Shown here: one piece after another, positions 41,800-44,239 of the stretch
Position numbering within the stretch: the first letter of the stretch is position 1
Layout of the letters: every line of letters begins with the position of its first letter
NCBI GenBank assembly: GCA_051747845.1
Contig: JBNJGQ010000001.1
Span: 5,970-69,969 of the forward strand
Origin: Pseudomonadota bacterium
GTDB taxonomy: Bacteria; Pseudomonadota; Gammaproteobacteria; Enterobacterales; Alteromonadaceae
Length of the DNA stretch: 64,000 nt
Direction: 5' to 3'
Made by a program: the position numbers and the translations under genes
The notes under the pieces: generated by a model
The model's database searches: none
Told to the model about the DNA's origin: nothing
What the model saw: only the letters and a program-made list of their open reading frames with translations

Positions 41800-42276
41800 T
41801 TAGTTACCTAAATAAGAGGTCAGCATCCACGCCGTTTTTTCCTGCTCTTTAATGTAGTCGCTCATCAGCGCATTGGTACCTTCATCTCCAGCTTCGTCAG
41901 AAATTTCAAGAATTTCACGCTGCAGACGAATGGTGGTCTGATAGCTATCTAAAATATTGGCGACACAGGCACGACCTTCGTGTACATCTTTAACTTCTTC
42001 AATTTCGCTGTTCTTAATGTACGTCGAGTAAGCATGCTGAGGGCGTTGACCCAGAGTCAGAATACGCTCTGCAATTTCATCAATTTTCAGCAGTAAGTCA
42101 TCGTAGGTTTCTTCAAACTTAGCGTGCAATTCGAAAAAGCGTTCGCCTTTAATGTTCCAATGGAAGCCACGAACATTCATGTAAAAAACTTGGTAGTTTG
42201 ATAGCAGCTCATTTAGCTTGTCGCCAAGGTTCTCTGCTTTTTTCTGGTCTAGACCAATAACGCTTAACTGTTTCAT
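41800..42276 (-). CDS. dps: Dps/ferritin-like DNA protection protein
   Basis: RGFHWNIKG..FFELHAKFEE.Y, IDEIAERILTLG, EQEKTAWML; start set at ATG 42276 after AAGGAGG. Confidence 0.93.
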   Translation of the reverse strand: MKQLSVIGLDQKKAENLGDKLNELLSNYQVFYMNVRGFHWNIKGERFFELHAKFEETYDDLLLKIDEIAERILTLGQRPQHAYSTYIKNSEIEEVKDVHEGRACVANILDSYQTTIRLQREILEISDEAGDEGTNALMSDYIKEQEKTAWMLTSYLGN

Positions 42277-42335
42277 AAAACCCTCCTTTGTCATCGTTAT
42301 GCTTTAACCATAGTTGAATCATTGGGTTAAAGAAA

Positions 42336-42382
42336 GCGATGAAAACCGATAAAGCTGACAGTTAAATTCGATAACTGTCAGC
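42336..42382. promoter_or_regulatory. OxyR-like site upstream of dps, overlapping an 11-bp inverted repeat (likely trhO terminator)
   Basis: Minus strand ATCG-N7-CTGT-N7-ATCG-N7-TCGC versus ATAG-N7-CTAT-N7-ATAG-N7-CTAT; IR GCTGACAGTTA-N7-TAACTGTCAGC (42354-42382) followed by TTTATCGGTTTT on minus. Confidence 0.5.
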
Positions 42383-42422
42383 CTATGCTTACATAAGGAG
42401 TACGAGAGTGCAGTGAGTTAGA

Positions 42423-43346
42423 TCAACTGAGGCTTTCGACTTTACCGTCGCGAATGTGTTTCTCACCGCGGGCTTTCGCCAATTGAATTTGACGCTCGCG
42501 CTCGGCAAAACGCTCTTTTTGTTCGGCTGTGGTTTTATCGTAGCAGTGGGGGCAGCTGACGCCCTTTTGGTAGTGTTCTGACTGCATTTCTTCTTTGGTT
42601 ATTGGCATACGGCAGGCGTAACATTGGTCGTATTCACCTGGCTCCAGGCCGTGCTTGACGGTAACCCGTTGATCAAAGACAAAACATTCGCCATTCCAGC
42701 TGCTTTTCTCTTCTGGCATCATTTCCAAGTACTTAAGAATGCCGCCTTTCAGATGATAAACCTCGTCAAACCCTTGTTCCTTCAAATAGGCAGTGGACTT
42801 TTCACAACGAATACCACCGGTGCAGAACATAGCCACTTTTTTGTGCTTTTCCGGGTTAAGGTGCTGTTTTACGTATTCAGGGAACTCACGAAAGGTGTCT
42901 GTTTTGGGGTTAACTGCGCCTTCAAATGTGCCTACGGCATACTCATACTCGTTGCGGGTATCGATAACCAGAACTTCCGGGTCGGCAATTAAGTCATTCC
43001 ATTTGTCGGGGTCAACGTAAGTGCCAACAGAGCTTTTTGGGTCAACCCAGTCAACGCCCAAAGTCACAATCTCTTTTTTAAGCTTCACTTTGGTGCGGTA
43101 AAAAGCTTGTCCGTCGCTGGGCGACTCTTTGTGTTCAATATCCGCAAAACGTTTGTCGGAACGTAAGTAATCCAGCACGTTATCAATACCCTCGCGAGTA
43201 CCGCAGATAGTGCCGTTAATACCCTCGCGGGCTAACAAAAGCGTGCCTTTTACATCGTTTGCAATAAGCGTTTGATACAGTGGCTCGCGGAGTTCTTTGT
43301 AGTCGTTTAGCTCCACAAACTTGTACAATGCCGCACAAATATACAT
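42423..43346 (-). CDS. trhO: tRNA uridine(34) hydroxylase TrhO (YceA/UPF0176 rhodanese family)
   Basis: [56 protein letters not shown]-terminal Cys cluster. Confidence 0.9.
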
Positions 43347-43366
43347 ATTATGTTACCTTTTTCAGC

Positions 43367-43390
43367 GGTCCAGAACGTAAATCCGGAGCC
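43367..43390 (-). promoter_or_regulatory. 5'-UTR hairpin of trhO resembling a tRNA anticodon stem-loop (UAC)
   Basis: Minus strand GG-C-TCCGGA-[TTTACGT]-TCTGGA-CC, 8 nt upstream of the AGGT SD; promoter -10 TATAAT at 43424-43429 with GC-rich discriminator. Confidence 0.55.
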
Positions 43391-43480
43391 ATTAATTAAA
43401 TTGCGGATCAGTAAATCGCGCGGATTATACCGTTTTGATCCTGATCAGCGCAAATTAGGGTTCCAGGGAGTAGTAAAGCC

Positions 43481-44239
43481 ATGGTAAGCGACGCTTTGTT
43501 TTTTGGTTTGGTTCTTTTGTCGGCAGCAACCTCACTGCTGACAGCTGTGGCTGGTGCCGGTGGTGGTGCGGTACTCATCGGTATGATGGCGCTGGTTTTA
43601 CCGGGTAGTGCGGTGATACCGGTTCACGGTTTAGTGCAAATGGGTTCTAATGTGGGCCGTACAGGGTTGTCATGGAAGCACATTCACTGGCCTACCGTTG
43701 CCTGGTTCGTACCTTTTGGTTTATTGGGTACCTTCATTGGCAGTTTATTACTGGTGCAGCTTCCCACGCATTTTTTGCAAATCACCATTGCGTTATTTTT
43801 AATCTGGCTGACCTGGGGGCCCAAGTTGCCGCAAAGCTTTCGTGGTCGGGCGGGCCTGGTTGGCGGAGGTCTGGTAACCGGCTTTATATCGCTATTTGTC
43901 GGTGCGTCAGGTCCGCTGGTTGCGGCCTTTGTAAAAGCCCGTTTTAGCGAGAGACTGCAAACCGTCGCGACATTTTCTGCGGTGATGACCATGCAGCATG
44001 CCCCTAAAGCGCTGGTTTTTGGCATGGCGGGCTTTGTGTTTCAGGATTGGTTGCCGTTGGTGCTGGCAATGATTGCTGCCGGCTTTGTTGGCACCTGGAT
44101 TGGCCTGCATTGGTTGAAGAAAATTACCAACCAACGCTTTGACCAGTTGTTTCGGTTAATCATTACCCTGCTGGCTCTTCGCCTGCTTTGGGTCGCGCTT
44201 GAGCCGTTTGTCCCAGCGTTGGCGAGCATAACGGCGTAA
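43481..44239 (+). CDS. TauE/SafE-family sulfite exporter
   Basis: AGAGGGA, IPVHG.VQ.GSN, SLFVGASGPLV, GTWIG. Confidence 0.85.
   Translation: MVSDALFFGLVLLSAATSLLTAVAGAGGGAVLIGMMALVLPGSAVIPVHGLVQMGSNVGRTGLSWKHIHWPTVAWFVPFGLLGTFIGSLLLVQLPTHFLQITIALFLIWLTWGPKLPQSFRGRAGLVGGGLVTGFISLFVGASGPLVAAFVKARFSERLQTVATFSAVMTMQHAPKALVFGMAGFVFQDWLPLVLAMIAAGFVGTWIGLHWLKKITNQRFDQLFRLIITLLALRLLWVALEPFVPALASITA

Follow-up and report, generated by a model that had tools for sequence, protein, structure and literature searches.

The operator hairpins of thrS are a case of anticodon mimicry. In Escherichia coli, ThrRS binds the thrS hairpins H1 and H2 and prevents binding of the 30S subunit (PMC3858243). TrhO is described as an enzyme that binds tRNA directly, and it modifies unmodified transcript in vitro (PMC6599085). 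The product of its reaction, ho5U34, occurs in tRNAs that decode NYN codons, and the E. coli enzyme requires O2 (Sakai 2019, PMC6599085). The window analyzed here (the whole stretch of DNA, 64,000 nt) contains a trhO gene whose leader carries a tRNA-like hairpin; the features of the locus are collected in Table 1. The original prediction had seen in this hairpin a mimic of the anticodon arm, and an anticodon-arm mimic linked to trhO is well supported by covariation, by an exclusive position 5′ of trhO and by tRNA-like geometry. The hairpin is real, and it is likely an undescribed cis-regulatory RNA.

Table 1. Features of the trhO leader and its surroundings (window positions; loop and stem positions in tRNA numbering)
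Feature	Position	Strand	Remark
Conserved leader element, 25 nt: outer 2-bp helix, 1x3 internal loop, 5-bp stem, 7-nt loop	43365..43389	−	
G24–C25 equivalent, 5′ side of outer helix; matches tRNA D-stem positions 24–25	43388..43389	−	
5′ strand of 5-bp stem (tRNA 27–31)	43382..43386	−	Two-sided changes at all five pairs
7-nt loop (positions 32–38); conserved U33, U34 (43379), purine 35, C36, G37	43375..43381	−	
Stem 3′ strand (positions 39–43)	43370..43374	−	G·U pair at 43372 is G–C in most relatives
G47–C48, 3′ side of outer helix	43365..43366	−	Likely stand-in for tRNA positions 10–11 (putative role)
trhO, oxygen-dependent tRNA U34 hydroxylase, 307 aa	42423..43346	−	CXGGXR motif intact
Divergent TauE/SafE-family gene	43481..44239	+	Context only; nothing ties the element to this gene
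Predicted −10 hexamer TATAAT, then GC-rich discriminator	43424..43429	−	Kept across genus
Candidate −35 hexamer, 18 nt from −10	43448..43453	−	3/6 consensus; putative
Shine–Dalgarno-like AAGGU	43355..43359	−	Begins 5 nt past element; placement typical of 150/171 leaders

The trhO product scores 340 bits against NCBIfam NF001133 (cut-off 170) and consists of UPF0176_N and rhodanese domains, with CXGGXR visible in the sequence. An intergenic gap of 134 bases separates the gene from its TauE/SafE neighbor, and within it the original prediction had the letters and positions right: on the minus strand, TATAAT runs from 43429 to 43424, the proposed hairpin from 43390 to 43367 and its loop from 43381 to 43375, followed by AAGGU and the trhO start codon, an ATG at 43346. 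The GC-rich stretch after the −10 occupies 43423–43417 (minus strand). Because the −35 is weak, the −10 hexamer is absent from promoter-scan output. In 135 of 167 leaders a −10-like hexamer lies no more than 70 nt upstream of the element, versus 29 of 167 in a control window. The distance from the −10 to the element is variable across the leader survey (2–62 nt) and the distance to the Shine–Dalgarno sequence (SD) is fixed. The spacer between −10 and element (window positions 43391–43423) differs in close relatives through short duplications and deletions, its length being about 16–45 nt.

On the other side of the element, an SD-like 4-mer lies 0–7 nt after C48 in 150 of 171 leaders; it overlaps the 3′ strand in eight, is located further away in four and is missing in nine. 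The first in-frame start codon is found 8–16 nt past C48 at 88 of 104 loci, and at 18 nt in the window. Four loci (L117, L122, L139 and L243) place the SD within the 3′ strand of the element with the start codon 3 nt beyond, so that the ribosome-binding site there would be masked by the element. Contigs from public RNA runs of related strains end between about 43361 and 43404 in four of six cases, two of them covering most or all of the hairpin; they show neither strand nor start and are given no weight here. Of the other two runs, one ends inside trhO and one yielded nothing. A run of unknown kind and a run guessed to be RNA span the whole leader region. Two published start-site supplements (PMC5864184, PMC9788540) contain no row assignable to trhO. 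Downstream of trhO, on the same strand, lies a Dps-family gene (41800–42294, minus), with an inverted repeat region near 42350–42390 in between.

In tRNA numbering, the element reads G24 C25 N26, a 5-bp stem, N32 U33 U34 R35 C36 G37 N38, the 3′ strand of the stem, three unpaired bases and G47 C48. The fold first proposed was an 8-pair hairpin, and it is indeed the predicted minimum for the window sequence. Placed on the alignment, this fold is paired in 81% of cells versus 96.7% for the revised structure, and it was rejected. Five pairs of its 6-bp stem are conserved, but the sixth is unpaired in 30 of 56 rows, and the GG:CC outer register breaks down in 35 and 9 of 56 rows. Conservation points to G24–C48 and C25–G47 as the outer pairs, with 98% of cells paired. 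Energy prediction restricted to the window sequence favors the GG:CC register (0.92 versus 0.05 for the conserved outer helix), and the outer-helix pair probability averages only 0.52 over 171 leaders; for the stem it is about 0.9.

The folding energy of the leader is unremarkable (z −0.99), and the case for the element therefore depends on comparison. A stem of at least six pairs closing a Y-U-U-R-N-R-N loop arises in 0.14% of 5000 shuffles of the intergenic region, and the full motif is present once in the 2.03 Mb assembly. The hairpin recurs at 25 of 25 same-genus loci. The second, weaker hairpin with a GATTTAC repeat that had been noted at 43403–43419 does not share this conservation: the second heptamer occurs at only 5 of the 25 loci, and the hairpin lies in a stretch rich in insertions and deletions.

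Comparison across leaders shows that the hairpin is real, that its structure is under selection and that its strand bias is that of RNA. The training alignment contains 56 distinct rows with 7-nt loops, drawn from 77 of 96 loci; the selecting score demanded GC and favored the loop core, and four rows with 8-nt loops were excluded. It is paired in 96.7% of cells, and each of the five stem pairs has two-sided changes. A test alignment of 37 rows from other genomes, picked by the covariance model or by a structure-only score, is paired in 96.9% of cells and has two-sided changes at 7 of 7 pairs, including the outer-pair variants C24–G48 (L499) and U25–A47 (L224, L465 and L496). Since the rows of both alignments were picked by scores rewarding structure or loop, part of their invariance is built in; moreover, genomes within either alignment are related and not independent, and the shuffles take no account of kinship. 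Two results are free of this row-selection bias: (i) pair 28:42, left free in the search pattern, is Watson–Crick in 101 of 104 trhO-linked matches versus 6 of 15 others and (ii) a search by pairing only, over 70 leaders of a second order, recovered the U-U-R-C-G core in 25 of its 34 top scorers. The non-Watson–Crick cells among 1197 comprise 23 G·U, 9 U·U, 4 A·C and 3 others.

Within the loop, position 35 is a purine in 56/56 training, 37/37 test and 26/26 variant rows, and U34 is invariant in the 93 aligned loops of 7 nt and retained in 23 of the 26 variant loops. A single exception to G37 was noticed (L491), and position 38, opposite U33, may be U, C, A or G. The variant loops belong to one family (f6, n = 30 loci), where 26 loci combine one additional covarying pair with a 6-nt loop, three are canonical and one lacks the element. 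Anticodon equivalents in this family are UAA (21), GAA (3), UAG (1) and UGA (1), and the lineage-specific form was seen at L301–L329, L088–L091, L295 and L296. Stem and loop are conserved in orthologous leaders, as the original prediction required of them: a covarying stem and a conserved loop occur in many gammaproteobacteria.

Which tRNA is imitated was judged by scoring tRNA anticodon arms with the leader profile. In a complete same-genus genome with 38 distinct arms, Leu(UAG) scores 17.5 bits, followed by Pro(UGG) at 4.6, Ala(UGC) at −3.0, Ser(UGA) at −3.8 and Val(UAC) at −5.2, and the 29 arms of the window's own genome (80% complete) give the same ranking. tRNA-Val(UAC), the template first suggested, has thus given way to Leu(UAG) (−5.2 versus 17.5 bits). 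The covariance model, which was built without any tRNA, points to the same arm: a class-wide search gave 35 weak matches off trhO, and 10 of the 17 examined are tRNA-Leu(UAG) genes. Over positions 24–43, several Leu(UAG) genes agree with the most frequent leader type at 19 of 20 positions, the sole mismatch being at 36. The combination C36–G37 occurs in none of the 38 arms of the complete genome, where all six G37 arms carry G36, and G36 occurs in one of 119 aligned or tabulated leader loops (L302). Judged by its sequence, the leader is a chimera of a Leu(UAG) frame and a Val- or Ala-type anticodon. By eye, leader stems were not seen to track the Leu(UAG) stem of their own genome. A tRNA-Ser(UGA) pattern matched mostly non-tRNA sequence, and an Rfam tRNA search was used instead. 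The tRNA-Leu(UAG) pattern also revealed tandem arrays in family f24, with 10 matches at G048:C1:815475-818017 and 7 at G074:C8:185508-187113.

To describe the distribution of the element, an even draw of 151 genomes was made from the window's order, of which 96 have trhO. The element is present at 64 of these loci by the covariance model (E up to 0.2) and at 5 more as the family variant by inspection; model and inspection did not find it at the remaining 27, 4 of which look degenerate. These misses include enterobacterial-type genes, a label assigned from their N-terminus (leaders L061–L064 inspected), and loci L065–L068, where the start was not placed. Decayed copies at L047, L053, L293 and L099 have a broken stem and in three cases retain the loop core; other members of the family keep the element, and the loss appears recent.

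In the second order, entered via a Marinobacter genome, 36 of the 70 leaders fetched carry the element (85 genomes have trhO). Twenty of the 34 motif-less leaders sit directly behind a BolA-like gene, one of them confirmed by Pfam, so that trhO has no leader of its own at those loci, and part of this order has a conserved bolA–trhO operon. The C-terminal S-P-x-C-x-G-G tail of the BolA-like protein ends at the trhO start (L435, L436, L441, L444 and 16 more of L434–L503). Hairpins with 8-nt UGC loops at L444, L467 and L488 proved to be the Cys codon region of the upstream BolA-like gene and were discarded as leaders. An even class-wide draw (60 genomes with a match) gave the element at 4 of 29 other loci fetched, with none found at 25. 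The motif is dispensable in many lineages. Carriers named by a pattern scan include Vibrio, Marinobacter, Microbulbifer, Colwellia, Moritella, Kangiella, Endozoicomonas and Methylobacter. Element and trhO also occur together at L155 and L213, in records titled Alphaproteobacteria and Acidimicrobiia, where transfer and binning error are both possible.

Where the element is present, it is specific to trhO. In 150 genomes, 60 of 60 covariance-model matches at E ≤ 1e-3 are in sense orientation and no more than 200 nt 5′ of trhO (38 in genomes that supplied training rows and 22 not, several of these near-identical to training rows), and none of the 55 genomes without trhO has a strong match. A fixed-pattern scan of GTDB estimates 780 stretches; among the 120 matches listed, 104 immediately precede trhO, one breaks off after SD and ATG and 15 are unrelated. 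Twelve weak order-level matches lie away from trhO, none in a tRNA and 11 inside long open frames, and thus no second regulated gene was found. Viral contigs gave no pattern matches. The model overlooked two divergent true leaders (L222 and L224), so a miss by the model does not amount to absence. A TrhO tree (FastTree, 68 rows) shows clustering, with 37 of 45 rows in one subtree and nine changes; it does not fix origin or order of loss.

The reading that we favor, at a probability of about 0.6 and by analogy with thrS, is that TrhO binds the mimic, blocks 30S entry and thereby represses its own synthesis, which would make the element a candidate operator. The element would be part of the trhO transcript, and spare TrhO would be its ligand. 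Bound TrhO, a protein of 307 residues docked 5 nt from the SD, would compete with the 30S subunit. Because the SD is mostly free of hairpin pairing, repression would need the bound protein. Unmodified substrate tRNAs would titrate TrhO off the leader, and the level of the enzyme would then follow the unmodified-U34 load. The logic of the loop may be that U33, U34 and purine 35 are common to ho5U substrate tRNAs, and that C36 is the base found in two good TrhO substrates (Val and Ala) and avoids the G36–G37 signature recognized by TrmD. Through circular permutation, the outer helix would take the place of the first two D-stem pairs.

The substrate range of the E. coli enzymes bears on this reading. 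E. coli TrhO mainly serves tRNAs Ala1, Ser1, Thr4 and Val1, and TrhP prefers Leu3 and Pro3; TrhO binds tRNA-Ala1 and not tRNA-Leu3 (isolated tRNA according to the legend, transcripts according to the methods; PMC6599085). In the leader loop, U34 and purine 35 fit NYN-decoding tRNAs and C36 fits Val and Ala, whereas the arm and G37 are of the Leu(UAG) type. Against TrhO as the ligand, the leader shares G37 with the disfavored Leu3 and Pro3, the two tRNAs here that carry G37, each together with G36, and it would be a poor ligand if G37 is what TrhO rejects. If G36 is the block, C36 of the leader would turn a Leu arm into a TrhO ligand. The E. coli-type trhO leaders in our sample lack the motif and their genes score far lower against the family model, so the tRNA preference of E. 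coli TrhO may not carry over. A further step, in which TrhO hydroxylates U34 of its own mRNA, and with oxygen releases it or hands it to CmoB and without oxygen is trapped and blocks translation, seems to us unlikely; G34 in 3 of 26 variant loops of family f6 implies that leader hydroxylation cannot be obligatory everywhere.

Another tRNA-binding protein, such as CmoB, TrmD or a synthetase (ValRS or LeuRS), might read the mimic and couple trhO translation to its own state, which we hold to be improbable. The leader has the arm type of tRNA-Leu(UAG), a tRNA not bound by E. coli TrhO, and the next pathway enzyme, CmoB (which we take to be the protein modeled by TIGR00452), was found in 36 of the 37 motif-bearing genomes examined for it. 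The exception is a 99% complete genome (G292) that has the motif and no CmoB match, so that CmoB is excluded by one genome only. TrmD–tRNA complexes with C36 have been crystallized, and binding without methylation is thus possible, but TrmD acts only on G36–G37 tRNAs (PMC5372735). That restriction may account for the avoidance of G36 in leader loops. The variable anticodon equivalent (UAC, UGC, UAA, GAA, UGA or UAG) fits no single synthetase, and the motif was found only before trhO, never before cmoB, trmD or a synthetase gene.

A hairpin with a general ligand or no specific one, its UNCG-like loop stabilizing the 5′ end or tuning ribosome loading near the SD, is a quite improbable reading as well. 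The stem is well predicted, and the UNCG tetraloop pattern is matched by U34-R35-C36-G37, which would account for C36 and G37, joint in no tRNA arm examined. UNCG would permit a pyrimidine at its second place, however, and position 35 is always a purine in aligned rows. Position 38 takes all four bases, so no closing pair with U33 is conserved, and one family holds the stem and outer helix but swaps the core for U-A-A-G. Nor would a generic stabilizer be expected to stay with one gene or to keep a fixed 5-bp stem and 1x3 loop.

It is very unlikely that the leader serves cross-regulation of trhO by bound TrhP, the oxygen-independent hydroxylase preferring Leu(UAG) and Pro(UGG). The leader does best match the two TrhP-preferred arms, and the window's genome has a trhP match (to NF011996, presumably TrhP). 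However, 12 motif-bearing genomes gave no trhP match. Of these, 11 are 99–100% complete, and the 12 include all eight of one family with some of the best-scoring motifs. This removes TrhP as an obligatory reader; genomes with trhP and without trhO have no strong motif match. Genomes G083, G158, G038 and G164 and family f7 have CmoB but lack a TrhP match; in these bacteria the whole set of ho5U tRNAs, Leu(UAG) and Pro(UGG) included, may depend on TrhO. Least credible of all is a DNA feature, either a dyad operator for a transcription factor or an integration-site remnant in a tRNA-Leu gene: an inverted repeat does lie 34 nt downstream of the −10 in a divergent promoter region, and integrases use tRNA anticodon arms as core sites, but the arms change in concert and the asymmetric spacer is conserved, the reverse of an operator, G·U exceeds A·C (23 versus 4), the element is always sense-oriented, with SD rather than −10 distance fixed, the rest of the tRNA does not follow it and the window has no tRNA gene. 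That leader stems were not seen to track the Leu(UAG) stems of their genomes also speaks against a DNA feature.

No Rfam 15 family, T-boxes, riboswitches and known leaders included, reaches its gathering score in window positions 43200–43600 or at 12 other leader loci, where only chance matches appear (E 2.8–4). The original prediction knew of no described trhO example, and literature searches, mainly of papers outside subscription, likewise turned up no account of a trhO leader. Three motif surveys (PMC5737381, PMC8632094, PMC11109978), searched in their main texts, and one supplement file revealed no trhO, yceA or rhodanese motif; the supplements of PMC5737381 and PMC11109978 may list the motif, and overlap is possible with the 107 protein-binding candidates in the latter. 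The first 300,000 characters of a 2026 review of RNA modification (PMC13602947) contain neither 'autoregul' nor a passage on a trhO leader. The literature searched describes no case of a tRNA-modifying enzyme controlling its own translation via a tRNA mimic.

Should TrhO be the ligand, feedback by mimicry would reach beyond synthetases and ribosomal proteins and take in the modification machinery, and cells could match their wobble-modification capacity to the tRNA load and possibly to oxygen. The alignment would then be a natural mutational scan of TrhO recognition, in which U33, U34, purine 35, a base other than G at 36 and the D-stem junction are predicted to matter, and the 25-nt element is a candidate minimal ligand for structural work. 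A point left open by Sakai 2019, whether G36 or G37 is behind the disfavoring of tRNA-Leu3 and tRNA-Pro3 by E. coli TrhO, becomes testable. Were U34 of the leader hydroxylated, the element would be an oxygen-sensing switch and would bear a chemical mark on an mRNA made by the enzyme it encodes.

Set beside known structures, the 7-nt form of the loop resembles a UNCG tetraloop in that positions 34–37 are UACG or UGCG, which does not apply to the family f6 form; unlike that tetraloop, it has seven nucleotides, no conserved closing pair around four of them and only purines at position 35. The likeness to the gammaproteobacterial tRNA-Leu(UAG) arm comprises the 5-bp stem and the 7-nt loop frame of U32, U33, U34, A35, G37 and U38. 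Position 36 differs, being C in the leader (A in one family) and not G, and the leader lacks acceptor, D and T arms, with the partners of 24–25 lying 3′ of the stem. As a small structured leader before the gene of a nucleic-acid-binding protein, presumed to be autoregulatory, the element resembles the protein-binding candidates of the Breaker survey (PMC11109978).

The thrS operator offers the most detailed comparison. In both cases an anticodon-arm hairpin stands right before the SD of a gene that encodes a tRNA-binding enzyme, although the start of the transcript is only predicted here. The trhO leader has the anticodon-arm geometry of such an operator, with a covarying 5-bp stem, a 7-nt loop, U33 and a purine at 37, and competition between TrhO and the 30S subunit, relieved by tRNA, is predicted by analogy. 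trhO differs in encoding a modification enzyme rather than an aminoacyl-tRNA synthetase, and its leader has a single hairpin, with one strong model match per genome, where thrS has two. With one hairpin and no synthetase, the trhO leader is not a member of the thrS operator family. Unlike the thrS hairpins, the trhO loop copies no single cognate tRNA, and an outer 2-bp helix imitates D-stem pairs. Finally, and again unlike the thrS system, TrhO could in principle modify its candidate operator.
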